NCBI GenBank assembly: GCA_003971905.1
Contig: RSEE01000023.1
Span: 496,001-560,000 of the forward strand
Direction of reading: 5' to 3'
Length of the DNA: 64,000 bases
Source: Moniliella sp. 'wahieum'
Lineage: Eukaryota
A model generated the notes under the pieces. That model had not been told where the DNA came from. It saw only the letters and a list, made by a program, of their open reading frames with translations, and ran no database searches. Both the position numbers and the translations under genes were made by a program. Below are positions 1 through 58,116 of the stretch, one piece after another (position 1 is the stretch's first letter; each line of letters opens with the position of its first letter).

Positions 1-3000
1 GAGTCCTCGACAATAAACAGCGGCCGTAACACGCGCCCACCGTCCGTGTAGAGTCGCAGTTCTTTCTCACGAATGTCATGCACCATGCTCACCTCGTTCG
101 AAATCTCGTTCCGGCGACGCATCATACGCACGAAGTCCACCAGCATAGTCGGCTCGTCGTGTGTGCCGAGCCAAACGCCATTGACAAATACCTTGGTAGC
201 GCGATTATTGGCGACTTGCATGTCTCGAGCGAAAGCAACGAGTACTCATGCAAGAATTGGACGATTGGGGACGATGCCGAACCGACCGAAATGGTCGACA
301 TGAGACTGAGGTTCTTGACCAGACCACAGGCTTGTCCCTCGGGCGTCTCGGCGGGGCAGTTGTGGCTAACGAGGCTGTTGGCAAAGAACGAATGGTTGGC
401 CGACTCGGTAGTGAATCAAACACCGCCTCCGGCTCCACTTCCTCCACCGACTCGATCGGGCACCAACAAACCCTTCGGCTTCAACCGCTCGCAAGCTCTG
501 GAACTTCTCCCACGACAGGAAGTTGGTGTAGAAGAGCACCATGACCACTACGCAGCAGCGAGAGAACGCCGTCCCATGATCGAACTGGAAACTGGCTCCG
601 TCTCGATCCGAGCACGTTTCGCAAAGTGCGCTTGCGACTTGAGGTATTGAACGGGGAGCGCACTCCGCCGCGTCTTAGCTGCACAGTAGCGATAACCCAC
701 ATTCTTGGAACGCAACCAAGTTGCCTGCCCTTTGTGTAAGGTGCACTTCTTCTCCCTGGGGGGCAGCTTTGACCCCGACATCGGAAAGGAGGCTGCGATT
801 GTCCAGCCAACTCCGTAACGAGAGGAGCCATGCAAGGCTTCCACCCCGCCCGAGTAGAACGCATGCGGATCGCGTCTCCTTTGGCACCAAAAATACCCGC
901 AAGGAACTCGCGCTTGACGAGACAGGGGCGTTGAGAGCCAAGGAGGGAGGAGGGTGCCGGCATATAGCAACGAGGAAAGCCTCAGCCGCTGAGGGCAGCA
1001 GATCGGGGCTGCCCTCGATGGCGGGGAGACCGAGGGTACCAAGGTCCGAGTTGACCGCAGCAACATCAGCCGCATCGCTGAGCGTCAACCTCCGTCCCTG
1101 AACACCAGAACGAGCACCAAGCAGGCGGGCAGTAGCGAGAACCTGGGGAAGCGAGAGGTCGGTGTCGACCAAACCACATTGCGAAAGGGCCTCCACCATG
1201 GAGGGGGCAAGGCCAGCGAGCTGAGTGCGGCAAGACGCAAGGTAAATGGCACGGGGGGGAAGTACTTAGATTGCGGGGAAACGAGGATCATATCTGTGCC
1301 GGCCTGCAGTTGACCGACTTTGGTCCACGAGGGTGAGAGCGGGTTCTGTGCCGCACGAAGAGGATGCTCGGGAGTGGCTTTGATCACCCTTCCGTCCGTC
1401 AAAGTCACCTTAAGAAGACGCTCAGGCATCTTGCGGAACCAATGGTGGATGCCGCTCCGCTCAATCTCCAGCGACGACGGCTTGATCGTCGCCACCTCTT
1501 TGCCGTCGGACAGGTCTGCGATGCGCCCACATCCATTCCGTTGCCCAGTACCACCTCCGTATCCGCCGTGACACAAACCATACCCCAATGGGTGTTGTGC
1601 AGCTGCCGTGGCTTGGCAATCTTTCCATCTCGTCCAATCGGGGTGTTGCACCGCCGCAATGGGACAAGGTGGAGGAGAAGGTGTACCGGTTAAGCACTTG
1701 CGACACACCAGCACGTGCAGACATGAACTTTTTTTGGTCGCCCAGTTGCCCGTCGCAACAGAGTACTTTAGGCCATTGGTAATGGTCGACGCCTTGACAG
1801 CTGGGTAATGTGGAAATCCTTCTTCTCCTCCACACTTTTGGAGATGCGGTAGATATCGCGCGTAAGCTTGCGGAAAAGCATGCGGAAAAGGCCTGCCAAC
1901 AAAGGCCCAGCCATGTCGAGACGCTTCTTGCCGAAGTGGTCACGGTCATCAATTTCGCGCCGCTCGAGGGCAGTGAGTAGGAGACGATGAATCATGTACC
2001 CAAAGAAGTAGGCCTTCTTGGTGTTACTCCCCTCAGACATGGAGATGCGGCAGCATCTCCTTCTGCAGAATCTCCTGCGCGTAGTGGCGACGACGTCCAC
2101 GCGCCAGACCAGTGACCGTGCCACGTCGACCAATCCAGTCCAGTGCATTCTCCCGATCTTGGATGCTGAATGCCTCTTCAATACAGGGCTTGAGCATCTC
2201 AAGCATCTGCGTGTCGTTGGGATCGTAGCAAATGTGCTGGAGGATTTCACGATCGGGGACAATGCCAGCGCACGAAACACAATCACGATCGGCACGTCCG
2301 CCTTGATGTAAGGCAAGGTAGCACGGATCACACTCCCACTGTTGCCCTTGTCGCCCGAACGGGCAAACATTTTGACCTGCATTGTGCTCACCGTCTTGCC
2401 TCCCGTCTCAACCGCACTGCGAATCTCAGCGAGGTAGTTGACTGGCGAAGGGCTGACTTGGAGAAGACATATACATGGTTTGCCGCCATCCTCTCTTGGG
2501 CAATCAGCACCTTTTCAGACCCATTGATGATGAAGTATCCACCCGAGTCGCAGGGACACTCATCCTTGCATACTTTTGGTTGTCGTCCATGTTGGTCAAA
2601 CGACAAAACGTAGACTGAAGCATGATGGGCACTTTGCCAATGAAGACCTTCTGCACCTCGGTGGCCGCGCCACGCTCCGCTGGCTCCCATGTATCATCCT
2701 CATCCTCCACCTTGAGGTACTTGCGCTGCGTCACATCAAGGAAGATGGGCGCGGCATACGTCAGGTTACGCAGGCGGGCATCCTGAGGGAAAAGCGGACC
2801 GGTGGATCCATCGTCCTCCGTCTGCTTGGGGAGCGAGGTGTAGATTTGGCCAAAGACGATCTCATACCGAATCTGCGCAAGAGTCAGCATGATAGGAAGG
2901 AAGGAGAGACGGCATCGGGACCGGAAGGGGAGTAAAAATACGTACGGTCCTGTCGTCAATTTCGCCATTGTACTGCTTGGCTTGCTCGAGGGTCAGCTGG

Positions 3001-3269
3001 CCTACTTCCTGGACGAGCTCCTGCATGGTGGTGCCGAGGAAATCGTTGAACGAGTCGAGCTGCTGCGGACAAGACCGCGCGAGTCGAAGAAGGAGCGGAT
3101 AATGTCCCATGAATCCTGCTGCCTCAGCTCCTCCTCCTGGGGGTCGTCGTTGGCCAGGGGGTACTCGTCAGCCTTGTCGAGGTACGAGTCGTAGTCCTTG
3201 GCTCCGTCTGAGGGGGGGCGGGGGGTCAGTCAGCATGGGCAGCAGGAACGCGCGGAAGGACGTACCCAT
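1..3269 (-). CDS. RPB2: RNA polymerase II second-largest subunit, 5' portion; runs off window start; intein-interrupted; introns ~3208-3265 and ~2872-2945
   Basis: Hallmark motifs [88 protein letters not shown] and [18 protein letters not shown] across several shifted frames; ATG at 3269 followed by a GTACGT..CTGAC..CAG intron. Confidence 0.98.
359..1575 (-). mobile_element. Intein (~405 aa) with LAGLIDADG-type homing endonuclease region inserted in RPB2
   Basis: Begins [10 protein letters not shown] (block A) right after GMV; block [23 protein letters not shown] and VGYRYCAAK endonuclease-like blocks; ends VFD(F)[18 protein letters not shown] followed by extein CPAETPEG. Confidence 0.95.
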
Positions 3270-3648
3270 TGGGGGCAGCGAGTAGCAGCGGAGAGGGGTG
3301 GGGTGGGGGCAGCCGTGCGCGTCGGCAGACACGGCGTGGACGGGAGGCGGGAGAGGAGAAGGAGGTGGTGGTGGCGGCGTTCAGGCGGTTGAGTGGCAAA
3401 CCAGCGGGTGATCGCCTGAGCTCAGGCCGCTGGCTGCCGCCGGGCGATTACCGCAGAAGGTTGACCTGCCACTGCCCCCGTGCCACCACCCATTAGGTCA
3501 GCAGCACTTAGGTAAGCCTTTCGGCTGCGTTGGCTGCTGCAATTTCATTTTGGCCGTTTTGGGTCATCCGATGGATCCTCGCAACCGCCACCACCACCAC
3601 CCCCAACCCCTCCCCCTTGGCCTGGCGCGGCAGCGTTCATTCTGCACC

Positions 3649-5113
3649 ATGGGCGCCGGTGATCTGGTACGACCTCCTCCCCTCCCATTCTGGGTCTTTA
3701 CACCGCCCATATACTGACTTCTCTCCTGCCACAGAATATGAAAAAGAGCTGGCACCCGCTCTTGATGGTCAATCAGGAAAAGGTGTGGAAGCGAGAAAAG
3801 CATGCCCTCGAGGAGCGCAAGAAGCTCGACGAACTCAAGCGCGAGCGCGACCAAGAACGCGAACTACAGGAACTTCGTCGACTCCAAGAAGAAGCGGCGG
3901 CAAGAAACGGCAAGAACGGGTGGATTGGATGTACGCCGCGCCACCCAGGGCGAGACGAACGCTGAGGAGATGGAGGAGTATCTTTTGGGCAAAAAGAAGA
4001 TTGACAAGATATTACGGGGGACGAAGCACAAAAATTAAGCGCTGTGGGAGGACAGGTCGGACCTTCCAGCTCCAACGTAAACTCCAACTCCAAGACGCAA
4101 GGCTATCAAGCCCTGCAGAACGCCAACACCGCCCAGGACTTGGCCGCCAAGGTGCGCGAGGATCCGATGCTCGCCATCAAGCGGCAAGAACAGTCCGCCT
4201 ACGAGGCCCTTTTGCGGGATCCGGCACGCCTTCGCCAGCTGAGAAAGCAACATGGCCTTGACAGTGGGGATAAAGATAAGGATAAGGATAAGGATCAGCG
4301 TCGACAAGAGCGCCATCGCCGCCATCGCCGCGACCGAGACGAACGAGAAGACCGTCACCGCCGCGACCGTCACCGCGACCACGACGAGAGGGATGAGCGC
4401 CATCGGCACCATTCTCTTCGGCATCGCTCTCATCATGATGTGGAAGAATCGCGCAGTCGTTCCCCAAGCCCGGGACGACGACGGGAAAGAGATGAACGCC
4501 CTAGTAGCTCCCGACGCAGTCACGAAACCTTCCTCCTCCTCTCGGCGACACCACTATCTTCTTCCTCTCTGGACGACTCTCGGCGGGACGACTCTCGGCG
4601 GGACGGCGGGACGACTCTCGGCGGGATGACTCCCGGCGGATGACTCCCGGCGGGACGACTACGCTTCTTCCTTCCGGAGAGGGAGTGACTCCTACGCCTC
4701 GCGGCGGGACGAACGCAGTGTTCGTAAGGCCGAGCGGGGAGATCCGGAAAGGGATCCTCACCGCACCTACTCTACCCCTCGTTCTTTCGAGGCAGGTGCC
4801 AGCACGTCGGGCGGTGGCGGACTGACGGCGGAGGAAAAAGCGGCGAAAGTGGCTGCGATGGCCTCGGCGGCCCAGTCGGTGGAGGTAGCGCGCGGTGAGA
4901 GGGTGGCGCGCGATGTGCGGAGGAACAGGCGGAGTTGGAGCGGGAAGCACAGCTGCGGGAGCAGTTGAAACGTCGGTATGGCGCTCATGCCACGGACGAG
5001 GTGGTGCGGCGCGAGATGCGCTGTCGAACCAAAAGGTGCTGGATCCGAAGATGGACTTGAAACAGAGCATCGGACGGCAGCGCCGAGGGCTGCAGCGCTT
5101 AGCCGATGAATGA
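3649..5113 (+). CDS. CWC25: Pre-mRNA splicing factor CWC25
   Basis: MGAGDL|intron|[52 protein letters not shown], followed by an R/D/H/S-rich tail. Confidence 0.9.
4573..4657 (+). repeat. Imperfect 15-nt tandem repeat (GACGACTCTCGGCGG) encoding DDSRR units in the CWC25 tail
   Basis: About five direct copies visible in the sequence. Confidence 0.8.
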
Positions 5114-7811: not shown

Positions 7812-10800
7812 TCAGAACCGGCCTTCCAGCATTGGCGAGTAATCCGGCAAGATCTGGGATGCCATGTGGCACACCCTCGACGGAACGGACGGCGGCACAT
7901 CCGTTCCCACGGGCGCCTCCCCCGCATACAACCGCACCAAAATTCGACGGTAAAACGTCTGCAACGCGACGGGGTCAGAGCAAAAGGCTTCAAACTCGCT
8001 CCGCACTCCTTCGGCCGTGAGACGGGGCAGAGGCGTCGATCCACTCCCCGAACGCGATCGGGCCGGTGACGAGGTCCCCCCCGACGAAGCGTTGCGGCGA
8101 TGATGCAAGCCGAGCGAGACGGAGCCCAACGAGGCCGAGGCAGCTAACTGACTCGAATTGTAAAGACGATTGTCGAGCCAGAGAAAGCCTTCGTTCCCTC
8201 CCAAGATTTGGGCAAAGGCCAAGCCCGACCGGTGGACAAACTGCGAACGCTCGAATTTGGTGGGCCGGGATTGGTAGTTAATCTCCACATTGGCCGGGTA
8301 CCGCGTAGAGGCTTCTTGGTCGAGAATGAACCCCCAATGGCGCAAGAGGCAAAACTCAAAGTAAGCGTCGGGTACTGTATGTTCAGGGAGCCGATGCGCG
8401 TACGCGTGGACCGGCGGTGGGGGCACGGCCAGCCGAATCTGGCGGGGCGATTGGAACGGATTGTGTTGGGCCACACTGCTGATTTGCTCGATTGGGGCCT
8501 CGACCAACATGAGTCCTTCTTTTTCCAACAACCGGCTCCAATTTTGAACCAGCTCTTCAATAAAGAGCGACGTAGTGGCCATCCAATGGATCTGGAAGTT
8601 GAACCCGTTCACTGTGACCAGTCAGTATACTCGGGGGCAGTAGATAAAGAGACGGAGGAAAAGACAACGTACTGGGGTTGTGGGAGATGTCATGGTGGAT
8701 GATACAGATTTCAGCGCGGTCGCGGGAGTTGGCGTCATCAGAATGGCCTACCCGACGCGAATTGTGGTACTGGCCCACATCAAATGCAATCGACCGCGAC
8801 AGCTGGATATGGCGCTTCCCTTTCGACGGCCAGCGGGACTCCTTCCCGGTCCCCGGGGCAGAGGAAGGAGGGGCAACGGCTTTCCTGCGACGTCGGTGTA
8901 CCCTTGTCACCCAAACCGATCTGTTGCCAGTCTTTGGTAAGGGAATAAAGTAGTGGCCGTCTTTAAAGTCGTGGACGTGACGCACGTGCTCAAGGAAGCC
9001 CTGTTGCATCAGCTGGTTGCCAATCGCCACTGCCGCGCGATCAGGCACGTCCTCGAACCGCTCGGTAAGCCAAGACACAAGTTCTGAGCCATAAAATGAG
9101 CTTGGGTACGTCACGCGGCGCCATTTGTGGTCCTCAATCAGTTTTGCTCCACCAGGCGCTGTGGTGGTCAACATCTCAGCCGCCAGGACAGAGCGCGGAG
9201 TATCGCTAAGTTCTCCTTTTTCCCGCGTGCATGGGAGCCAGGCGCATTAGAGGTGCTGCCGGTACCAGTATAAGAAGGCCAGGTCTGATGGAACAGGGCC
9301 AAATTGCGGAGGAACGGCTCATCAAACAAGCTCTGAGTTGGATCGAGCGAGGTCATGAGGAAACTGAACGCTTGCCGTGGTTCCCCCACTTTGCGCAAAT
9401 GGAACCGTTGCAGCTCAGCAGCCAGTCGGCTCATGCCAGCAATCCGAATTTCCTCTAGCGAAAGGTCCCGCTTGCTCGCCATCAGCTCCGACACCTCCGA
9501 GTCGTCCATCAGCTTGGGCACCACAATGAATCGAGCTCGCCAGTATTTCAGCTCCTCGATCAGTCGGTCCTCAAATCCGCTAATCAGGCCGTCCAGGTAC
9601 GTCCAATTGTACTGGGCTGAGGAGGGGAAGTGGAATTCGGCGGACAAGTTCTGGTATCCGGGTAGATCCCTGGCCCAGATACAGCAACTGTACGTGATCG
9701 GTGCGGTCGAGTACGTGATATGCTTGAGATAGCGTTTAACGTTGATCACGCCGCTGTCCTTGTCGTAGCTGATGCGGTGGATCTGGTTGGAGAGGGACAA
9801 AAAGATGGGGTTGCCTGCGGTGATCAGGCCGGGCATAAACGATTCCGACGGATGGCGGAGGGTAAACTTGGCTTTGGGCCCAAACACACTCGATTGGTCG
9901 CCGACAAAGTTGCTTAGGGTAGAAGAGGTGGTGGTGGGAACGATGAACTGGAAGCCACGCGAAAGACGCTGGTAAACCATCTCCTTCAGAACCGACACGG
10001 CCGTTTTGAGGGGGGATGTAGGACGCATGGTTGTCCCTGCGGTCAAGGTAAAGGTTGCGCATATGGTATGACTGGCGTGGATGCCGCGGCTGTTTAAGGA
10101 AGAGACTGGTTGCGCCCTCGGAAATCGAAGCAACGTAAGGATGTTCCTGCCAGTGGGCCATGAGGTCTTGTGCTTCTGGGAGCTGTGACGCTGTCAATGG
10201 CAGACAAGCCGGGCTAGTCATGGAGCGCCACTTGACTTCATGGTGGCTCAGTCGATCGGGAAGAGGTACTGCCAGCGCATCAAGTCGGTATAGTTGCCCG
10301 CCGATGGCTTTTTGGGCTTGGAAGGGTTGAGCGTCTGGTTGTCCAGAAACTTGATTGCTCCCTTGGGCAGGCCCAACTGGGACACCACACCTCCCGTCAC
10401 CCCTGTCCATTCAGGGGTGATCTCATCGTCCGATTCGTCCACCGCTTCCCCTCCTCTTCCCCTGCTGTCTTCGTCCATTGGGGGATACTGATGGGGGTGC
10501 GATTGTGCGGCTCGGTGCCGGTCTCGCTGGCAGAGGTGGGAGCGTCGTCCGTGTTGCGGCGGGAGAGGTAACCCCGATTCCACCAACTTCCCTTTTTCTG
10601 CTCGCTTTTGGCGGTAGAGCGGCGGGATTGCAAACGGCCTTGCTTGGGAGAGCGGGTGGAATGACCAGAGGCTACGCTGCCCCCATCCGAGGGAGCTGGG
10701 CTGCGGACAGGAACTCCATTTGTAGCGAGGATCTGACGAATCTGTCGGGTCGCAGAGAGGGACCGTGAGGGTGGCGCGGGGCGAGGTTGAAGCGAGTTCA

Positions 10801-13800
10801 GCAACCACTGGGTCGAGGTACGCCAGGCCGAACCAATGGTGGAGCTCGGGCTTGTTGTCCTCCGGTTCAGACACAGGGTCCTTGGGCGGAGAGCTGGGTG
10901 GCAGACTCTGCAGGAGGAGGTAAGTGTCACCGAAGCTGGGGACCGGCTTGACGACTTGTTCTCGGCAATCACGGGGAAGGGTCAGTGACGCGGCGGGGGT
11001 AACGAGCGCCTGAGCCTTGCCCAGCTCATGTTGGACAACAGTAGCTTGCTCCCCGTGCTCGATTGGAGCGATCCTTGGCTCTTTTTCCGCATCAGCGAGA
11101 GCGCAGCCGAAGTCAACCGGACTTTATTCGGTGTTTGCTCTGTCTTGGGTGGACTCACCGTGTCTGCCGCAGCGCTGGTAGCAAGAGAAGCACGTTTAGA
11201 TTCCTCTGGTAAGCGGGAGGTGACCTCGGGTAGATTCGGCAGGTCCGAGTGGCGCATGCGTGCGTTCGATGGGGATCTCCAGGACCCCGTGACCAAAGTG
11301 GGGATGGCCAGGGATCCCGAGGAAGCTTTGGGGCCCGTTCTTTCGCCAGTCTCCGCGAGTGTGTAGGGGAACGTGGAGCGGAGAGGTGCCCCGGGTTGAT
11401 AGGGAAGGCAACTGGGGACTGGGAGTATGCCGGCTCCCTCTCCTCCCCGAGGGGTAATCGCGGCCGAAGGACGATGCGTTGGTCCGGTCCATTCCGCGCC
11501 TCCACATCCGCCATGACTCCTCGGTCGAAGATAGCACGAGCAAGGCCGGTGTCAACTCTGTATCTGCGGCCTTGGCTGCCGCATAGAGAGGAGTGATGCC
11601 CTGTCCCGGCGAGGCCGACAAGGCTTGGTCTACCCTTGAGTCGGGAAAGTCAACCGTGAGATACGTGGAAGGGGAGACACTAGCCATCGATCCGTACCGT
11701 TGGTTGCGTTGGGCGCGGCGATCTGGGCCATGGTGGACTTTGAGTGGACGGGGATGCTAAAGGGAGGGAACGGGGGTTGACCTTGTTTGGTACAGATGCC
11801 ATGTCCAGATAAGGAATGGATATGCCCGCCACTTGGTTTTCCATCACGCCCATCATCTGGATATCGTACATCTTCGATCGGGGCACGAACCGGTCTTCAC
11901 GGAATGGCTTGTCCCGCTGCACATTGAAGAATGAACAGTCAATCCAATGGGGCAGAGAGTAAAACATGATCTTGGATGACTGCACGCGGCCATTCCTTCG
12001 CCCGCCACGCTGGGACTCTTCTTCATCGCTTCCAGCTGAGGAAGAAGGATCGTCGTAGTACAGCGGATCAGGGGGCTTGGTATCCCCCCCGTACCATCCA
12101 CCGTTGTTTCACGCAACCGGTTGACACGAGGCATGATGCCTGAACCCATACCAAATGTATGCCGAGCATTACTGAACGATTGACCAAAGGAGGAGCGTGA
12201 CCCGGCAAAGGTCATGTTGTTTGGTCCGGGATTCCATGGCCGAGAGCCGTCCCCGCTTGGGTTGAGTGGCCGCGTCCTTTGCCAGTGGGTGCATCCACAT
12301 CAGGCACCGAAGACCAGAACTGGAAGAGTGGGACAGAATGGAGGGGCATCTTGGTCAGACAGACCAAGTCCAGTGCCACACCACTTTCGACATGCGCTCG
12401 GTAGTGGCGCGCAGCAGCTGCTTGGGCACTCGAAGCGTCCCGTGCCACACTAACGATGGTGATACTGATCCGGTCGATTCAGGTCGCGGTCAACATAGTT
12501 GCGGTCAAACGGGTTGAGCGCGAGGTTGACTGCCTCAAGAATGTTGCCTTCGTAACTCGCGCAAGCTTGCCTGCAGTGAGGTAGATCGGTGATAAGGTCG
12601 TGATGGGGATGGGCGTGTTGGGGCGCTGGGCCGGATACGGGCGGCGGATAATGAGAATGTCGTGTTGGAAACGAAACACTTCTTCCTTCAGACGGCCCAT
12701 CACGTCCACCCAATTTGCGCCGGATCTGAGTCAAGAATGACCTTGTAGTAGTCCACGTAGCCCTTCCTCGTTCATCACGTCGCACCGGCCAGTCCTCAAT
12801 CATGTGTAGCTCGTGCTCTTCGAACAAAACGCGACCGAAGAGAATGACGCTGACCAGATGATTCGTTGGGACCGCGCTCCAGCCCGAAGAAGTTCGGGGA
12901 GAAACCCATGGATGCCTTTTCGTTATATAGTTCACCATCTTCGTCAAAGTCCCACATCTCCTTGCTCATCTGGATAAAAATAAAACTTGGCGCTGCCGAT
13001 CGAAAGATGGTTTTAGTAGAGGCTGACACGTAGCCAGAAGAAACAGTGCGCTCCTTGATGAAGATGCGTCCCACCGTGGCACGCACCAGGTTGGAGGGCA
13101 ACTTTTTGCCCCACGTACACACACGTGTCCTCCAACTGTAGTGACAGGCGCCACATGTCGGCGCGTCCGATGAACTGGTCGCGAAAGTAGAGCTCAACGT
13201 GGGAGATGGTGTGCTCCTCGACGGGTACCTGGGAGGGGGGAAGGGAAGGCAAATGTCAGTTGTCGGTGCGTCGCACACAATCGAACGAAAGGGAAAGCGT
13301 ACACGCGTGATGAGAACTTCGGTATTGGTGCGCATGCCCATCGCATTGCCAATTGAACGAGAGAGGGAGATGTCCAAGCCGGTATCGGCCTCTAGCATCT
13401 CGCTGAACTGATCCGCCTCTTGCAGCGCGTAGCTCCAACGAAACACGATGGAGGGCAAGGGCAGCGCATCGAAGCGCCGGTTGTGGGGCGTGGCGGACCC
13501 GAGTAGGAGGACACGTCGGCGGCGTTGGTAAAGCGCAGCGCCCATCAGCTGGGGTGTTGTTGAAGTTGTTGGGACCAAGGGGCCGGGACGAGGAGCGGAG
13601 CTCCGGGTGGGCGTCTGCCGGGTTGGCCAGGCGGACCTCGAGGAGCATGTTGTCGCTCATCGGACCACCCATGTCGCGGTCGGGGTTGATGGCGATGTCG
13701 GACGAGAACTGCGGGTAGCGCTGGTGGCGCGTTCGTTCTAGCGCATGAGGCGAGACGGGGTCGTGGATGCGGGCGAGGAGGAGAACGGGCTCGGGGATGG

Positions 13801-15653: not shown

Positions 15654-17105
15654 ATGGGTAAGGAAAAGGTACGTCCTGTGCAGAGCACTGTTCCTTCTTG
15701 GCCGTCCCAAGCACCATGCTAACCACCGCTCCCATTTCAGCTTCACGTTAACGTCGTTGTCATCGGCCACGTCGACTCCGGCAAGTCGACCACGACCGGC
15801 CACCTCATCTACAAGTGCGGTGGTATCGACAAGCGTACCATTGAGAAGTTCGAGAAGGAGGCTGCTGAGCTCGGCAAGGGTTCGTTCAAGTACGCCTGGG
15901 TGCTCGACAAGCTCAAGGCTGAGCGTGAGCGTGGTATCACCATCGACATTGCCCTGTGGAAGTTCGAGACCCCCAAGTACCAGGTCACTGTCATTGACGC
16001 CCCCGGCCACCGTGACTTCATCAAAATGATCACGGGTACCTCGCAGGCCGACTGCGCCATTCTCATCATTGCCGCCGGCACTGGTGAGTTCGAGGCTGGT
16101 ATCTCCAAGGACGGCCAGACCCGTGAGCACGCCCTGCTCGCCTTCACCCTTGGTGTGCGCCAGCTCATCGTTGCCGTCAACAAGATGGACGCTACCAAGT
16201 ACTCGGAGGACCGCTTCAACGAGATCATCAAGGAGACCTCGACCTTCATCAAGAAGGTCGGCTTTAACCCCAAGTCGGTTCCCTTCGTCCCCATCTCGGG
16301 CTGGAACGGTGACAACATGATTGAGGCCACCACCAACATGCCCTGGTACAAGGGTTGGGAGAAGGAGACCAAGGCTGGCAAGGCCACGGGCAAGACCCTC
16401 CTTGACGCCATTGACGCCATTGACCCCCCCTCGCGCCCCACCGACAAGCCCCTGCGTCTCCCCCTGCAGGACGTGTACAAGATCGGCGGTATCGGCACTG
16501 TCCCCGTCGGCCGTGTCGAGACGGGTGTGATCAAGCCCGGCATGGTCGTTACCTTCGCTCCCGCCAACGTGACTACTGAAGTCAAGTCGGTCGAGATGCA
16601 CCACGAGTCGCTCCCCGAGGGTCTCCCCGGTGACAACGTTGGTTTCAACGTCAAGAACGTCTCGGTCAAGGACATCCGCCGTGGTAACGTTGCTGGTGAC
16701 TCGAAGAACGACCCCCCCATGGAGGCTGCCTCGTTCAACGCCCAGGTCATCATCATGAACCACCCTGGCCAGATCTCGAACGGCTACTCGCCCGTTCTTG
16801 ACTGCCACACGGCCCACATTGCTTGCAAGTTCGACTCCATCCTTACCAAGATGGACCGTCGTTCGGGTAAGACCATTGAGGAGACCCCCAAGTTCATCAA
16901 GTCGGGTGACGCTGCCATGGTCAAGATGATCCCCACCAAGCCCATGTGCGTCGAGGCCTTCAACGAGTACCCCCCTCTCGGCCGTTTCGCCGTCCGTGAC
17001 ATGCGCCAGACCGTGGCTGTCGGTGTCATCAAGTCGGTTGAGAAGACCTCCGGCAAGGGTGGCAAGACCACCAAGGCCGCTGAGAAGGCCGGCAAGAAGA
17101 AGTAA
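15654..17105 (+). CDS. TEF1: Translation elongation factor 1-alpha (intron after MGKEK)
   Basis: [65 protein letters not shown]; strong codon bias. Confidence 0.99.
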
Positions 17106-18014: not shown

Positions 18015-19571
18015 CTATGCCGACGTTCCTCATGCGATCCCCGGCGGCTCGCCACGACCGATTGCACCCGGCTGGCGTTCAGGCTAGCAGCGGCACTGCG
18101 TGCATCGGCGACCTTCTTGAGTTTGGCATCCAGTGCATGCGACTTGTACACATCCACGATCCGCGCAAGAAGCTCTGAGGTGCTGACGCCCGGGGTGCGG
18201 CGGGTGGGGAGGAAGCGGCCTTGGTCTTTGACGAAGCGGTACGTCCGCCGCACCGGCCGGACCCGCATACGGTTCTTCGTCGTGCGCCACATAATCAATC
18301 TGCAGCGCATCGAGCAACTTTTGGTCCACCACCCACGGTGCGTCCTCCAGCACTTCGTCCACCCAACGGCAATTGGCCACCGCGGCGTACCGCTCGGCTG
18401 AACTCATCACCGGTTCGTTCTTGTGTGCCTTGCACGCCGCACTCGAGCAAACGCCAACAATCAAGTGCACACAGGGGAAAGCAAGCTTGGCCTGGCGCAA
18501 CTGCAGCGCATGGGCATAGTGGAACAGATCGTACACCCCATCCGCATAGATCCGCACCGGCTGCGCTGGGTCCCGACCATCGCCGACAGGGCGGGCGATG
18601 GAGTAGTCGCGCTGCCCCTCGACGGGGTGGTAGATGGCATCGTGGAACCAGGTCCGGATCTCGCTCACCGACGCAGGCACCAGAGGTTCTTGCGCCTGCT
18701 CCGACTTGAGCCGTTCCGGGTACTCTCCCCATGAAGAACGGGGAACCGGGCTGGGCGCCGTACCGCCCGTCAGCGGAGGGGGCACGCTCGACGCCAGCGG
18801 GGCCGGGTGGGCCGGGCGAGCGGCAAATTCCACGTCGCCATCGTACGGGGTGGTGCTATCGGGCACGTTGGGGTTCAAGTCCAGGTGGGCATGGCCATAC
18901 CGTGGACCGGGCCCCACGTCTCGGCTGCTGAGCGAGGCCGAGGTGTAGCCGCCTTGGTGTGGCGCCTCATCCGAGGCAAGCGATGCATCTGCATCGCTCT
19001 GCGGCGCCGCACGGTGGGAACGGCCCTCTCGCCCGTCCTCGGCGGGGGGGATGGGGCCACTGGCCAGGTCCGTCCGCAAATCCAACTCGCCACGCGGTGT
19101 GCTCACGCCAGGCGCCGAATCGGGCACGACCAGCACGGCTGGCGGAGCTTGGTCCGAAGTGGGAACGGTAGCAGCACCGTTGCCCGTTCCCATCGCCTCT
19201 ACTGCCGCCGTCTGGGACGAGGGAACGGCAGATGCAGCGGCAGTGGCGGCGGTGGCGAGCAGCGACCGCTCGCCCAAAGCCTCGTGCTCGCCCGGCGGCG
19301 CTTCGCGGATCACACCCAGGGGTGCGCTGCGGCGACGGGGACGGGTATTGCCGGCGGTACGCGGGCTGACGGGCCCATCAGAGGGGGCATCGGCATCGGC
19401 ATCGGCATCGGCGTCGTCATTGTCCTCTTCGCTGGCATCACGACTGGAGCTGATGAAGGGGGGCTCGTCCAAGGCCTCGTCGTCGGCGGTGCGGGAGGAA
19501 CGCTCTTTGCGGTGGGCCGCATGGGCGTGGGCATGGTGGGCGTGGAGGAAGGAGCGGGTGGTGGCCGCCAT
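18015..19571 (-). CDS. PCT1: Choline-phosphate cytidylyltransferase with long disordered N-terminus
   Basis: PVRIYADGVYDLFHYAHALQLRQAK, CRWVDEVLEDAPWV, IDYVAHDEEPY, FLPTRRTPGVSTSELLARIV; 3' end approximate. Confidence 0.9.
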
Positions 19572-20431
19572 GGTGGGGGGGGGGGGGGGGGGGGGGGAGG
19601 GGGGGGCGCAGGGGGCAAAGAAGCGGTGCGGGACGAGTGGAGTGGTGTCGCTGCCGGCGAGAGGGCAGGCAATCGAGCAGATGCGAGTGGGTTGGTTAGG
19701 CTTAGGATGGTTGGTGTGTGATCGCATCGGTGATCGTGGGATAATTTGCAGGCACAGGCACCGTTTCAAATTTCACCGCCACATGCCAGGGCGCCTTGGG
19801 CGCAGCCTGACGCAGCCCCACAGCCAAGCGGAGCGTCGGGACGCTTGCCAAGCTATTCAGCTGAATGTTTCGATTGCCATTGAATCCGGACGATGATGCA
19901 TGATGCATGATGCATGATGAATGCTTCCCGCGTCTGCCCAGCTGCCTGCCCCTGCATCTGCCCACCCGCCCCATTCACGCGCCCGCGCGCCGCGCCGCGC
20001 GAGCTTACGTCAGTCGCATGCCACTCCCCGGCGGCTACTGCCGCCCCATGCTCCGCGCCGGCCAGAAGCTTTCCCGTCTTCCCGCCCTCCGCCTTCTGGC
20101 CTGGCAGTGGGGTGTTTTGAAGTACGTCAGCGGCAGTTCACAATCCGCGGAGCTGACATAAGGTAGCCGGGAGCCGATTCCCTGTTAACCCTAACTGGCG
20201 GCAGCCGGCAACCAGATGCTTTTTGTACATTTCATAATCTCAGCGCACAGGTAACGCTGGATTCCAAGGCGCTCCCATCGTGCATCGCTGCGGAGACAGG
20301 CTGTATATATACACGCGGGGTCTGTCTGCCGCATACGCACGCAGGCGCTCTGCATGCGTGTGCGCAACATCTCATTCGGCCTCCGTGGCAGCCACGCGCC
20401 AGCCAAAGCGTCGTCGAAGCACCGGGAGCGC

Positions 20432-22842
20432 CTACGCCGACGGCGCCAGCGCTTGCAACGCCGGCTCCTGCTCGATGCTGGGCATGGTATCGGTGATCAG
20501 GTCCCACGGCTTTTGCCGCCGCCATAGGCCAACAGGTTGTGCTTGTACCGGTCCCCCGACGCGCGCAGCAGCTCGGGCCGATCCGCCGTCGGCGCAAACA
20601 GCTGTCCATACAGGGCCTGCGCAATCGTCCGTCCAGCGGGTAGGAGTAGTACGCGGCCGGGTAGGATGCCAAGTGGCCGAACCGGCCCTGCCAGTCCAGC
20701 CCGCGTGCAAACGGAAGCTTGCCATACCGCGCATGCGTCGCCTCAAACACTGCCGTGCTCGCCGAGGGTGTGTGGCCCGCCCACGTCCCCTGCGGCGGAG
20801 GCAAGTGCAGTGCCTGATCCAGTAGCGAGAGCATCAGCTCGTCGTGGGTCTCCAACGCAGCCAACGACCGCGTAGACGCCGTCAGCGCCTCAACCTGGGC
20901 CAGCGGAAGCGGTAGGCCCGTGCGGTAGTGCCGCGCGTACATGGGCACCACCTGGGGATGGAGCAAAAAGTGTTCCATCAGGATCGATGGCACCTCAACA
21001 AAGTCGGTCGCGCAGCGTGTCCCAGATACGTTCTGGAATCGGTACGACCCACCATAGAGTGAAGCGTGACCCATCTCGTGGAACAGCGTCTCAATCTCGC
21101 TCCAGTGCAGGTAGGACTGGCTCTCGGCCGAGGCACCGCGTTCCGGGGCGCGGAAGCTACAGAGCAACGCCACAATCGGCTGTTGATAAAACCTTGACGG
21201 TCCTTGGTCTGGGCCAAACGGCCGGTAAACAAATCCCTGCCTCCCAAAGGTCCGGTAGGAGTGATGGTCTCCTTGCCATTCTGCAACGCCAGGTCTTGTA
21301 CGGTTATCGGCACATCCCCACCCACGTCGTCCAAGTCCACGCGACGAGAGCAGCGAACGGTAAAGTGGGCGGCGCCCATCGGCTTGCCCGGGCGGTCCCA
21401 TAGGTCAGCATAGATCGTGCCGACTACGCCACCTGCATCCTCATCGTAGACTTGGAGCTTCAGAACATCTTCGTGCCATGTTTCCCCTGGAGCAGGGGTC
21501 TCGAGACGGAGATGGATGCCAAAAAGGTGTGCCAGAGCCGACTGAGACCGCTAAAGACTGTGCCCACCGTAAAGAAAGAGCCGATTCCAACCTGAGCGGG
21601 TTGGGAGCGTGCCGTATAGCGCGCAATGAGGTACTCCTTGTCCCATGGTTGCAACTTACCCGATGGGCCGACATCGGACTTGTCGCTCAATCCATTCGCC
21701 AGCAACATCTTGCTCTGCTCCGTCAGTTGGGGGGCGATGTCGTTGAGACGTGCACTGAGAAAAGCAACCACATGCTCGGGCGTCTGGGCCAGCTTGTCCT
21801 TGAGCGTCATGTGAGCAAACGATTCGTGGCCGGTGAGACGAGCAAGTTGATCCGCTGTCCAGCAACTGCTCCAAGGTGGAAACTTGCCGTGCCCCACCGG
21901 CAAAGGTGCCCATGTAGGCTAACCGACGAGCCTCAGGGTTGGGCGCCAACGAAGTATTTGCAACAGCGCTGGGCTACCGGGGGGGATGGAGATGGAGCTT
22001 CGCCAGGGGCGGGTGGAGATTGGCGCATCGCGTCGTTCAACACGTCCTTCCGCATCCCCTCTAGCAATTTCAAAGGAATCTCCGTCGAGGGTCGATCGTC
22101 CTTGAGGAACCCAGCACCATCAATCAGCCCCTGGGAAAAGGCAGTGGAGAGCTGGAGAACGTCATTGCTGAGTGCAACAAACTGTTCCGCTCACGGTCAG
22201 GGAGATGGATGGCACTTTTCTCAAAGTCGGCCAAGTACATATCCGCCACCCGCCTCCCTTCGCGGTAAGAGACGAATACAGCTCCTTGTCACTGACGACC
22301 GCCTTGAGAGGTACATGTCAACGTTCGTATTGAGTTCGTCATGTAGTTGACAAACGCCATGGGCCATCTCGGAGGCCTCGCGCCAGTCAGGTTGGGGGTG
22401 CGCAGTGCGCAGGAACTCTGCCAAGTCGATCGTCTTGCACAACAGATCCGACAGACGGTCCAAGTTGCGCACGGCTTGTTGCATGTCCCGACTCTGGTTC
22501 CCGCCCGATGAGCACGAGAGATGCGCTCGACAAGCGCCTGAGCACGAGACTTGGTGTCCTCAGCGATAAAGATAAAGTCGTAGGGTGTACGCAGCCGTCT
22601 CACCAAAAAGACCCGTCGGCTCCCCTGCTGTACCAGGGGCAGATGCGCCCGAATCAATCACAGTGCGCAATTGTCGTGTTCGTCTTGCACTGTCTGGGTA
22701 GAGTAGGGGCGAGGCAGGGGGAAGCAAGGAGGGTAGGGGTAGGGCCGAGCCAGGGTCGGTCGGTAGCCAAGAGCAGCATGCCGCCCACAAAGGGCTGCGC
22801 TGCGTGAGGTGGCAAAGAAGTCAGCCTACGGAGCGCCAGCAT
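20432..22842 (-). CDS. OCT1: Mitochondrial intermediate peptidase (M3 metallopeptidase)
   Basis: VRNLDRLSDLLCKTIDLAEFLRTAHP, GAAHFTVRCSRR, ETLFHEMGHA (HExxH), NVSGTRCATDFVEVPSILMEHF, WQGRFGHL. Confidence 0.93.
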
Positions 22843-27920: not shown

Positions 27921-29958
27921 CTAATTCTTCTGGGCCAGGCGGGCCAGGACGGAGCAGAATTCCTTAGGAGAGACAATCTCCGTCGCCCCATAGGTGATCC
28001 GCTTGGGCACGCCCGCCTGGGAGGAGGATGTACGCTGCTCGTACTCGCGCAAGTTGGCATACTCGACATAGCTGCCCCCGCCACCACAAATACGACCGCA
28101 TCGTTGTGCCCGCTAGCCGAAACGGGCGCCGATGTATCGGCCACTGTCCGCCGTTTGGGATCGAGGTAGAGGTACTTGTCGGACTCTGTCCTGGCCTGCG
28201 CCGACGCTTGAGCTGGGTCCATTAGTGCCTTGACCAACCGCGTCACCGTCTCGTCCTTCTGTGCTGGGAGGAAGTTCTGACCCCTGCAACTAGGTTCTCG
28301 AATCCAGAATCTTTCAATCGTTCCCCAGCGTTCGCCCCAGAGCACCAAACCCTTTAAACAGATCTTTCCCCTGGGCAGGGGCAGGTGTGGCGCCGAGGCC
28401 AACGACATCATCCGAGCCGTTTGGCGAATGCTGCATAGACGGAAGGGTCAGCAGTGATCAGTCAGCAAAAAAGGAGGAGGGTGAGGCGGGGTGAGGGGAG
28501 GGGGGTGTACCTTTGGACATAGCGAAGTGCAGATAAATCAGCCCCAGCTGCCGTTAGCGCATCCTCGAATGTTTTCAGCTCGTTGGGTCCCAATTCGACG
28601 GGGCTGGAGAGAAAAGATCAAAAAGAGACGAAGCTTGTCTTGAGCCCCGGACCAAGCCGTGTTTTGGATAGCGTCCAGCACGGTCTTTTGAGGAACGTTG
28701 CGGATGCCCTCCTCGATTTGGAACAGCTCGTCCAAGCCGCGGTCGCGGATGCCTTGCAACAAGGCCGTGGCAATGTTCATGTGAGCGTCCAGCACAGTCT
28801 TGCGCGCGGAGCGCCGGGAGAGCTGTAATAGCCGCTTTCAAATGGAGCGCATTGTTCCCTTCCAGCGAGCTCACATCGTCCAAAGGAGAAATGCCCGTCT
28901 TTGCGCGTGAGCTCAGCAGCATCAGCCTTGTACTTGCCCAGCTCCTGGTCAATGTCAGCAGCAACCTCGGGGAAGGGCTGCACGACATTCTTTGTCCAGA
29001 AAAAGTCCTTGCCATCCAGATCGTCTTGGCTTTGCTCCCTGCTCCGAGGCGGGAACACTGACCCGGTTCAAGCGCAGCTCCAACACGTCGTCCACCAGTG
29101 CTTGGTACGTCCAACTATGGGCAAGCATGGGGACCAAGTCCACATCCCGATCCAACAACAGGAGTAATGGTCGCTGGGAAACCCATCCCTCGGCCCGGAT
29201 CCAGAGGAAAAGAGGTCGCTGGCGCCTCGGGTAGAAGCTAGGTGGGAGCGAATGAGCTCGTCCAGTTCACGAGCCACCAGCTCGGCAGCATTCCCCCCGG
29301 TGCGCGAATGATGGGGATGCCACCCCCTCGAGTGGCTAGCACACTGAAAAGGCCATGCGCAATGCGGCTTGCTTCCGCGCGGACTGCCTCCTCGCCCGCG
29401 CCGGAGCATACAGGACTTCGTACGTGTTGTGTTTTTGCGGGGGAGGGAGCAGTTCGAAGAGTGAGTTGTCGAGCACAACAAAGTCGAGGTACTGATCAAA
29501 CACCTGCTCCACCCCAGCTCCATCCGACTTGTGGCAACTATCCGAGCAAACTCGTCGAGCTGCGAGTCGGAGAGGGGCGAGATGAAGTTGACAAGGATCG
29601 ACTCGTAGGCTGCGCGGGCTAGATCGTCGGCGATCCGAGTAAAGTTGGCGGTAGTGGGGGCAACAAAGTAGACCGCAGGCACATCTGGAAGTGGAGGGCG
29701 GTCGGAATGAAGCTGGAGGTGGAGGGTGACGCCGGCCTGGCGCAGGTCCTGGACCGTCATGAGGGGTGCGACCACCTCCTGGGCAGCGCTGTCGAGACGA
29801 GCACTTTCCAGGACGGGGCGGCCGCGGCGTCGAGGGCAGCCGACGGGAAGGAGGCTTGCCGTCGCCGCCAGCGACCGCCTTGATGCGCGCATCGGCGACG
29901 GGGCGGTTGGAGTTGAGGAGGGCAAGCAGCGCGCCACCTGGGCTTCGCGCAGCGACAT
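27921..29958 (-). CDS. SLY1: Sec1/Munc18 family protein Sly1 (ER-Golgi)
   Basis: MSLREAQ start, [96 protein letters not shown]. Confidence 0.92.
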
Positions 29959-30322
29959 GGTGGTGCCCTCAGGCATCAGCGCAGGCGCCGCCGAGGGCAA
30001 GATGGCCGAGGGGCAACCCTAGCCAGCCGCCACGTGGAGGTGGGCTTACGTCAGCGGGCAGCCGCAACATCACGTGCCATGTCATGGGTGTGACCGACTA
30101 GGGACAAGCCACTGTGGGGGAAAGAGGCTGCCAAGAGCTGCGCCAGACTGCCCCACCCCGCTGCGCCGCTGGCCCCACCTGCGCCCGCTCGGGCGGCGCC
30201 TTGGGCCTTAGCCGGGCCCTGCGTCGCCGCCGATCCGATCAGCCCGCAGCCGCATCCACCTGCCCCTATATAGCTCCTCCCCGCCACCATTGCGCCCTCA
30301 GCCCCGTGCTCCCCTGGCCGCC

Positions 30323-56635: not shown

Positions 56636-57495
56636 CTAGTGACGATTGATTTTTGGCTCGGCAGCTTGCATGTCTGCTTGGATCCCCTTAAACTTGTTCT
56701 CAGTGCTATCGACTGCAGGACAAGTGCGTATGGAATGAACCCGTTGTAATGCATCATGTCAAGAACATGCCTTGGAGTAAAATGTACCGTACACCACCAT
56801 CGCAAGGGAGGGGGATATTGCATCCAAAACGCCTCAGGAGGTTTGATTCAGGCATTGTGTTGATGAGAGTGGTTTCCCTTGGAAAACACAGTGCATGACG
56901 TGGCCCAGCCACCCCGGGGCCTGGCGGGGATGAGTCGGTGTGGGCTTCGATCTACGGCGTAGACGTCGTAAACGTAAATGAATCAATGATCAAAGAAATG
57001 ATCGATGATCCGATGGTCATCGGTCGTATTCATACAGCAACGAAGGGCAAGGAGGAGCCCATGGCAACCCTATTCATTTGCGCTGCGGCGTCCGGCGGCA
57101 TTGGGCGGCAGTCGTGCTTTGAATATGCACCCATGCGTACAGTGGCCATGTGCCTCTCCTGCCCCCAGAAGGGCAGCCTGGCGCGGGACCTGTCCCTGCG
57201 TTCATCAATGCGGCGAGGGTCGACCACCATCCAGGCCGTGGCCTAGCGAGCGACAGTACCACCAGCTCAAGCCAGGTCTCCAGTCAAGTGCGTATGCGTC
57301 CCTTCCTGTTTGGCGAGGCCGTGCGAGGGGTGTAATCGGGTTGGTTGATGCGCGATGCTTTCCGCTGCACAAACCAAGGCTCCGTCTCTCTCCCCCTCTG
57401 CCGCCCATGCTCTTCCCGAGACTGTCCCGCCGTCTCACGTCCGAACCGGGGTGACTCCCAGGACTGCCTGCTAACCTTTGGATGGTGTTTTCAGG

Positions 57496-58116
57496 ATGGG
57501 TTTCCGCCACAACAACATCCTTCACAACAACCACTTCCGCAAGGACTGGCAGCGCCGGGTCAATGTGTGGTTTGACCAGCCCGGTGCCAAGAAGCGCAGG
57601 CGCAATGCGCGCGCTGAGAAGGTGGCGCGCTCGGGTCTCAAGCCCGTTGACTCGCTCCGCCCTGTGGTGCGCTGCCCTACGCTCAAGTACAACCGCAAGC
57701 TGTGTGCTGGCCGTGGGTTCACCCTTGAGGAGCTCAAGGCTGCTGGCATTCCCCAAAAGCTTGCTCGCGTGATTGGTATCGCGGTGGACCACCGCCGCAA
57801 GAACCGCTCGGAAGAGGGTCTGCGCCTCAACATTGAGCGCGTCAAGGCGTACCGTGAGCGTGTGGTTGTCATCCCGGCCAAGGGCAAGGGTGCCAAGCTC
57901 GCTGAGCTGGCCTCGGCTCCCAAGGTTGAGAATGTTGCGGCTGCGTTCCCCATCCCTGCTGGCACGGTCGCCGAGAAGCCTCGCGCAATTACCCAGGAGG
58001 AGAAGGACTTCGAAGCCTTCAAGACTCTTCGCCACGCCCGCAACACCCACCGCCAGGCTGGTTTCCGCGCTGCTCACCAGGCCAAGAAGGAGGCCGAGGA
58101 GAAGGCCAAGAAGTAA
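57496..58116 (+). CDS. RPL13: 60S ribosomal protein eL13; probable 5'-UTR intron 57288-57494
   Basis: HFRKDWQRRVNVWFDQPG, LRPVVRCPTLKYN, GRGFTLEELKAAGI, IGIAVDHRRKNRS. Confidence 0.97.
   Translation: MGFRHNNILHNNHFRKDWQRRVNVWFDQPGAKKRRRNARAEKVARSGLKPVDSLRPVVRCPTLKYNRKLCAGRGFTLEELKAAGIPQKLARVIGIAVDHRRKNRSEEGLRLNIERVKAYRERVVVIPAKGKGAKLAELASAPKVENVAAAFPIPAGTVAEKPRAITQEEKDFEAFKTLRHARNTHRQAGFRAAHQAKKEAEEKAKK

Follow-up and report, generated by a model that had tools for sequence, protein, structure and literature searches.

Evidence for an RPB2-c intein with a probably inactive endonuclease in the RPB2 gene of a basidiomycete

The gene for RPB2 at the left end of a 64-kb stretch of contig RSEE01000023.1 (positions 496,001–560,000; "the window" below means this whole stretch of 64,000 nucleotides) is interrupted on the minus strand by an insert of 1217 nt at 359–1575. 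We report that the insert is a real intein and constitutes a new, apparently unreported host lineage for the known allele RPB2-c. The reading that we hold to be very probable is that 359–1575 is a genuine class 1 intein of the RPB2-c type in the RPB2 gene of a member of Ustilaginomycotina, that its endonuclease is degenerate and the element immobile, and that the breaks in its reading frame are errors of the assembly.

The insert and its allele family

Both boundaries of the insert are exact. On the minus strand the junction at 1575 reads CAT TGG GGT ATG GTT / TGT GTC ACG GCG GAT and the junction at 359/358 reads AGC CAC AAC / TGC CCC GCC GAG, with Cys1 encoded at 1575–1573, the terminal Asn at 361–359 and the +1 Cys at 358–356. 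The host residues HNTHWGMV precede the insert and CPAETPEG follow it; its removal restores the conserved RPB2 motif, the same as in 110 uninterrupted RPB2 proteins. The Pfam domain RNA_pol_Rpb2_3 is divided accordingly, profile positions 12–47 (of 68) lying upstream and 45–68 downstream. The length of the insert is not a multiple of three, and it is in frame with the host only once assembly deletions are allowed for. An initial annotation had described an RPB2 split by about 1217 nt with Cys1, block B, an SHN terminus and an extein Cys, and these coordinates and motifs proved exact.

The insert has the features of a class 1 intein: in-frame insertion, Cys1, TxxH, penultimate His, terminal Asn and +1 Cys, together with homology to the Hint domain. 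The class 1 splicing motifs pointed out earlier are all present in the window and invariant in an alignment of seven intein sequences, as is a 12-residue stretch of the C-terminal splicing region. The Pfam family Intein_splicing matches a piece of the window insert (E = 2e-5) at 24.9 bits, below the cut-off of 35.8 bits because the reading frame is broken, and reaches 40.5 bits, above the cut-off, in the intact relative P0001. A profile of the seven-sequence alignment matches solved inteins, the best being the DnaB intein 1mi8 (E = 2e-4), and the C-terminal splicing region matches its counterparts in the DnaB and gp41-1 intein structures. The features of the locus, all on the minus strand, are as follows; invariance refers to the seven-sequence alignment.

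359–1575, minus: intein coding sequence, assigned to the RPB2-c allele; about 405–411 codons as assembled (416 residues in P0001)
1531–1575, minus: block with the Cys1 nucleophile; C1, D5, T6, N12, G13, M14 and D15 invariant
1364–1375, minus: block B, TPEH (TxxH), inside 1358–1396; P69, E70, H71, P72 and L73 invariant
1113–1130, minus: first LAGLIDADG-like motif, ARLLGA..VQG; aligns to LLGLALTDG of Phlyctochytrium; frame disturbed just downstream
871–915, minus: second LAGLIDADG-like motif; aligns to KREFLGGFFGGDGA of Phlyctochytrium; K222, R223, E224, F225 and L226 invariant
359–465, minus: C-terminal splicing region, blocks F and G (415–465 and 359–412), with the penultimate His and terminal Asn
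1–358, minus: start of the RPB2 C-extein, which leaves the window at its left end; 104/118 residues (88%) identical to P0001
1576–3199, minus: RPB2 N-extein, 5' end approximate, with the N-terminal KDYDSY motif at 3161–3199; many assembly deletions

With an 88-residue in-frame piece of the window intein as query, 13 longer proteins were found. The best match, P0001, is an RPB2 of 1572 residues with an uninterrupted intein at the same site, and the other matches are RPB2 or RPC2 proteins of Coemansia species. Searches with the whole of P0001 and with its intein added Mycoemilia scoparia, Batrachochytrium dendrobatidis (RPB2 and RPC2), Phlyctochytrium arcticum and two further proteins. At E ≤ 1e-10 the P0001 intein found 21 proteins; the named ones all belong to Kickxellales or chytrids, and no Dikarya protein besides P0001 is among these 21 matches. 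The window insert aligns end to end, far beyond chance, with intact same-site inteins in 13 of the RPB2 proteins compared, including those of B. dendrobatidis (P0021), Phlyctochytrium, Mycoemilia and eight of Coemansia, and the flanks HNTHWG../CPAETPEG are common to all RPB2 intein holders. Its identity is 64% to the P0001 intein, 49–57% to those of Kickxellales and 39% to those of chytrids (39–40% to that of B. dendrobatidis), with 351–400 aligned residues for Kickxellales and B. dendrobatidis.

Table 1 of Goodwin et al. (2006; PMC1635734) lists the B. dendrobatidis RPB2 intein as allele RPB2-c with a length of 488, and the same paper locates the RPB2-c site in the fork domain. The intein of P0021, from whose sequence we established the B. 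dendrobatidis insertion point, has 488 residues and flanks identical to those of the window. Since the length agrees with that table, the site is the same and the sequences are collinear over their whole length, the window intein, judged by its insertion point and sequence homology, is a member of the known RPB2-c family and not a new allele. The suggestion of an unreported host lineage or allele therefore holds for the lineage and fails for the allele, which is known from B. dendrobatidis and occurs in Coemansia and Mycoemilia. No report of RPB2-c in a basidiomycete or in Kickxellales was found in the openly readable literature, a scope that leaves aside subscription journals and InBase, and the basidiomycete host lineage is apparently unreported.

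Comparison with published inteins places the element more closely. The B. dendrobatidis RPB2-c intein (Goodwin, Butler and Poulter, 2006; PMC1635734), whose sequence is also contained in supplement 2 of Green et al. (2018; PMC5784728), shares with the window intein the fork-domain insertion point, blocks A, B, F and G, a LAGLIDADG-type middle and the Cys1, Asn and +1 Cys residues, but differs in its modest identity, its length (488 versus about 405–416 residues) and its chytrid rather than basidiomycete host. The RPB2 and RPC2 inteins of Kickxellales (Coemansia spp., Mycoemilia scoparia), known here as annotated NCBI proteins, are the nearest named relatives and occupy the same site, but they belong to a different host phylum in which the RPC2 paralog is occupied too. 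The earlier remark that the well-known basidiomycete inteins are those of PRP8 needs an addition: supplement 2 of Green et al. (2018; PMC5784728) contains RPB2 inteins of Tilletia caries, T. controversa, T. indica and T. walkeri, and others have been published from Salmacisia buchloeana (G3, 2023; PMC10849329) and Trichosporon asahii, although all of them lie at other sites. The Tilletia and Salmacisia inteins of RPB2 or RPB2-like proteins share with the window the host protein family, the subphylum and a class 1 type with Cys1. They differ in site (NTYQ/SAMGKQ, before SAMGKQAMG, between primers bRPB2-7R and 7.1R) and, starting with CLTADHEVLT, belong to a different intein family. The Trichosporon asahii intein lies at GEMERD/CMISHG, again not the site of the window.

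Within single species, the RPB2 and RPC2 inteins can be nearly identical. They share 97.6% of 467 residues in Coemansia sp. RSA 1933 (P0006/P0007), where the exteins are 37% identical, and 98.4% of 488 residues in B. dendrobatidis (P0021/P0281), with exteins at 39%. Such near-identity at a homologous site points to recent homing or gene conversion from paralog to paralog. The B. dendrobatidis RPC2 intein presumably also has an entry in InBase.

Since the host gene is a single, essential one and the splicing residues are intact, we infer that the insert would be removed by protein splicing. After translation the Hint domain would carry out an N–S acyl shift at Cys1, followed by trans-thioesterification onto the +1 Cys. 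The terminal Asn would then cyclize, aided by the penultimate His, and an S–N shift would follow. The extein ends would thereby be rejoined in the fork domain, and RNA polymerase II would be able to assemble.

It is extremely improbable that the insert is instead removed as RNA, in the manner of a spliceosomal or group I intron, or that it was acquired directly from a giant virus. The reading stays open through the insert, whose intein blocks are conserved across an alignment of 15 sequences, and the boundaries are TGT...AAC, so that any choice of GT...AG would destroy an 11-residue motif. A viral source might be suggested by the abundance of the family, at site c and neighboring sites, in RNA polymerase subunits of non-fungal appearance. 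However, a branch of length 0.91 separates every one of the 26 non-fungal site-c representatives from the fungal clade of 15 sequences (support 100) to which the window belongs. In a scan of viral contigs, 57 stretches matched the patterns and none was confirmed by tblastn, only two peptide patterns, taken from the seven-sequence alignment, having been used. The direct giant-virus donor considered in the initial annotation thus finds no support in the tree or in this pattern-limited scan.

The same intein family is widespread in second-largest RNA polymerase subunits, with 191 library proteins matching it at E ≤ 1e-30. Among the best 150 representatives there are 60 full-length matches, of which 27 are at site c (..G../C..ETPEG), 11 before CGLVK, one before SAMGKQ and 21 elsewhere. 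The CGLVK site is that of Dictyostelium RPC2, ten residues downstream of site c.

Reading frame of the host gene

A single reading frame is kept by the assembled sequence neither in the insert nor in the RPB2 exons on either side of it. Over 1573–2771 the N-extein is identical to P0001 at 381 of 396 residues (96%), with seven frame breaks in 1198 nt and no stop codon. A frameshift-aware alignment of the intein to that of P0001 gives 256/398 identical residues, ten frame breaks and, again, no stop codon. The density of breaks is thus 8.2 per kb in the intein and 5.8 per kb in the N-extein. These breaks are deletions of the assembly and not signs of decay, because the essential extein is equally broken and yet 96% identical to P0001.

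Contigs from four public sequencing runs (among them X1, X2 and X4) were aligned onto window positions 1–3400. Four near-identical X1 contigs cover 1143 nt with few substitutions and have extra bases at nine places (ten bases): 223, 1526, 1659, 1740, 1800, 1832 (two bases), 1846, 2567 and 3064, the frame being restored each time. The contig at 1459–1884 crosses the N-terminal junction, and the one base it adds behind 1526, in the region of block A, mends the intein frame. Every break covered by X1 contigs is mended, and the interior of the intein (457–1368) lies outside usable cover.

Were the frame breaks real mutations, the locus would be a decaying pseudo-intein or an RPB2 pseudogene, and ten breaks in 1217 nt, as well as the unbroken state of some other genes in the window, would agree with that. 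We consider this very improbable: decay does not account for an essential extein that is similarly broken while nearly identical to P0001 and free of stop codons, or for X1 contigs that supply the missing bases at each covered indel, including that of the intein at 1526.

Some contigs were set aside. Two short pieces of low identity, from X4 at 796–830 (5 of 35 letters different) and from X2 near 936–998, were attributed to other organisms. The joints 346>1573 (X1) and 358>1577 (X2) belong to contigs that differ by 10–15% from the window; they were taken for intein-less RPB2 of other organisms in these samples rather than for empty alleles of the host species. Intein-less RPB2 contigs with this degree of difference are present in both X1 and X2, at 154–358 and 1573–1658, and were taken to come from other fungi. 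X2, labeled a food metagenome, also holds one 185-nt contig identical to window positions 2730–2914, too little to name a habitat.

The endonuclease domain

About 200 residues separate the splicing blocks and contain two LAGLIDADG-like motifs, and the middle of the intein is, as modeled for its relative, a homing-endonuclease domain of the LAGLIDADG fold. The AlphaFold2 model is that of the P0001 intein, not of the window, and was built on the seven-sequence alignment; the mean predicted local distance difference test score (pLDDT) is 71, with values of 75–95 across approximately residues 110–330. In this model the two halves of a LAGLIDADG alpha/beta fold are related by pseudo-symmetry. In a Foldseek search it found the TliVMA intein 7qss first (9.5e-9), then PI-PfuI (1dq3), PI-SceI (1vde), I-DmoI and I-Tsp061I. 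The TM-score (TMt) was 0.54–0.60, or about 0.58, for I-DmoI and 0.56 for I-Tsp061I, with a root-mean-square deviation of 4.9 for the latter. The model shares the two-domain architecture of Hint plus LAGLIDADG with 7qss, 1dq3 and 1vde, while the sequence identity to the solved LAGLIDADG inteins is 11–15% and the global TM-score is about 0.3, because the orientation of the domains and the Hint termini are poorly modeled. The endonuclease-type middle domain that had been read from the sequence is thus upheld by the fold of the P0001 model and by the two motifs in the window.

In LAGLIDADG endonucleases such as PI-SceI and I-CreI, the Asp residues of the motifs bind metal and are catalytic. These positions, canonical in that family, are substituted in the lineage of the window and P0001. 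P0001 has Q in the first motif and S in the second; the window has K in the second and V-Q-G in the first, which was aligned by eye; Phlyctochytrium has D-G at both. Hence neither motif ends in an acidic residue in the window or in P0001. The inteins of Mycoemilia and of C. thaxteri RPC2 keep G-D-G in the second motif, unlike those of the window and P0001. Moreover, the intein differs by 36% between the window and P0001, whose exteins differ by only about 4–6%. Because of the substituted Asp positions and this divergence, the endonuclease is probably inactive and drifting, its homing activity lost. The canonical acidic residues would have been lost in the lineage of the window and P0001, with the domain now evolving fast; an element with such an endonuclease is most likely fixed and immobile, late in the homing cycle.

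Several points weigh against the reading proposed here. The Hint termini in the model of the P0001 intein are poorly supported, with pLDDT below 50 at residues 1–46 and 399–416. The Pfam LAGLIDADG family is absent from P0001 at E ≤ 0.1, as it is from P0021, P0008 and P0009, LAGLIDADG_3 being matched only by the Phlyctochytrium protein P0023 (28.4 bits, cut-off 22.5). An Asp two residues past each substituted position (SGD, KGD) might compensate for the loss. As regards the frame breaks, their individual verification by contigs is confined to positions outside 457–1368, and X1 is possibly the source sample of the window itself and hence not an independent strain. The density of errors is uneven, the open reading frames (ORFs) of eEF1A (15723–17102) and L13e (57475–58113) being unbroken. 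Finally, a second, intein-free copy of RPB2 elsewhere in the genome is possible, the scope of the analysis being the 64-kb window.

Host lineage and origin of the intein

In the extein tree, P0001 with its intein removed falls within a clade of 13 Ustilaginomycotina sequences (support 100). Its sister is P0014, a protein of 1120 residues whose extein is 86% identical over 1091 columns, and the pair branches outside the sampled Tilletia, Exobasidiomycetes-type and Ustilaginomycetes sequences. Because P0001 is placed there and the window extein is 96% (N-extein) and 88% (C-extein) identical to it, the host is assigned to Ustilaginomycotina, in agreement with its earlier description as an apparent basidiomycete. 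A survey for empty alleles, likewise proposed earlier, shows the RPB2-c site uninterrupted in 110 of the 128 RPB2-type proteins compared, including P0014, the nearest extein relative, which is therefore a natural empty-site comparator for the lineage of the window and P0001.

The neighboring genes, identified from 98 of the 165 ORFs of at least 130 residues, are ordinary for a fungal nuclear chromosome, and the GC content of the window is 0.58. Between 3500 and 64000 they include CWC25 (about 4005–4640, plus), IML1/DEPDC5 (about 7815–13656, minus), eEF1A (plus), a cytidylyltransferase (18087–19772, minus), a peptidase M3 (20235–21550, minus), a Sec1-family protein (29071–30018, minus), RhoGAP, Bap31, a class-V aminotransferase, L13e (plus) and NUDE. 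eEF1A (460 residues) and L13e (213 residues) are single ORFs, the peptidase M3 gene is divided into overlapping frames, and RPB2 has 6–8 frame breaks per kb; at its left side the window may reach a contig end of low coverage.

The intein tree is compatible with a horizontal as well as with a vertical origin. In a tree with the 26 further site-c inteins, the window and P0001 fall in a clade of 13 sequences with Kickxellales (99 by the Shimodaira–Hasegawa-like approximate likelihood ratio test), nested in the fungal clade of 15, which a long branch sets apart from the other site-c inteins. In one intein tree the pair is sister to Coemansia javaensis (81/91) instead of lying outside Mycoemilia and Coemansia together. 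An approximately unbiased test does not reject the monophyly of Kickxellales inteins without the basidiomycete pair (p = 0.379), and the GC content of the intein (0.594, compared with 0.581 for the window) shows no anomaly.

The patchy distribution, the empty site of P0014 and the cross-phylum identity nevertheless make us lean towards horizontal transfer. Transfer from a Kickxellales-like fungus after the split of the host phyla, followed by fixation and the onset of decay, comes close to an even chance in our estimation. It would account for the restriction of the named matches to Kickxellales and chytrids, with P0001 alone in Dikarya, and for the many uninterrupted sites; it also agrees with the position of the window and P0001 within the Kickxellales clade and beside C. 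javaensis. The P0001 intein is 51–56% identical to those of Kickxellales while the exteins are only 63–65% identical, and the close pair of the window and P0001 already differs by 36% in the intein, compared with 4% in the extein. The near-identical RPB2 and RPC2 inteins within one species indicate that the family moves. On the other hand, besides the test result and the unremarkable GC content, the topology, with basidiomycete and Kickxellales inteins together and chytrids outside, is that of the species tree; assembly error contributes part of the difference between the window and P0001 inteins, and their fast rate may be recent, postdating the loss of the endonuclease. Horizontal acquisition, raised in the initial annotation, thus draws support from the distribution and the empty site but is left unproven by the test.

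Vertical descent from an early fungal ancestor, with independent losses in nearly all other Dikarya and in Mucoromycota, is possible, if on the doubtful side. The fit of the intein groups to the species tree and the failure to reject Kickxellales monophyly are compatible with it, and Goodwin et al. (2006; PMC1635734) make the case that the RNA polymerase inteins of eukaryotes are ancient relics. Such descent would, however, require many independent and precise losses, the site being empty even in P0014, and the cross-phylum identity of 51–56% is high for an element that has diverged by 36% between hosts with 96% identical exteins.

Taken as a whole, then, our tentative proposal, to which we give somewhat less than an even chance, is that the window holds the first RPB2-c intein in Dikarya, which would have passed by cross-phylum transfer from a Kickxellales-like donor to an early-branching member of Ustilaginomycotina and become fixed there, its endonuclease now decaying.

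With this assignment RPB2-c, a nuclear intein allele so far known from chytrids and present in Kickxellales, extends to basidiomycetes. RPB2 is a standard gene for fungal barcoding and phylogeny, and an insert of 1.2 kb in the 5–7 region would upset both amplification by the polymerase chain reaction and alignments; the fragmented frames, in turn, would lead automated annotation to miss or shorten RPB2 in this assembly. The hosts represented by the window and P0001, together with the empty-site P0014, form a set for studying the gain and fixation of an intein and the decay of its endonuclease. If the proposed transfer is true, this lineage with its empty-site sister would offer an example, natural and open to dating, of an intein that invaded one fungal phylum from another.

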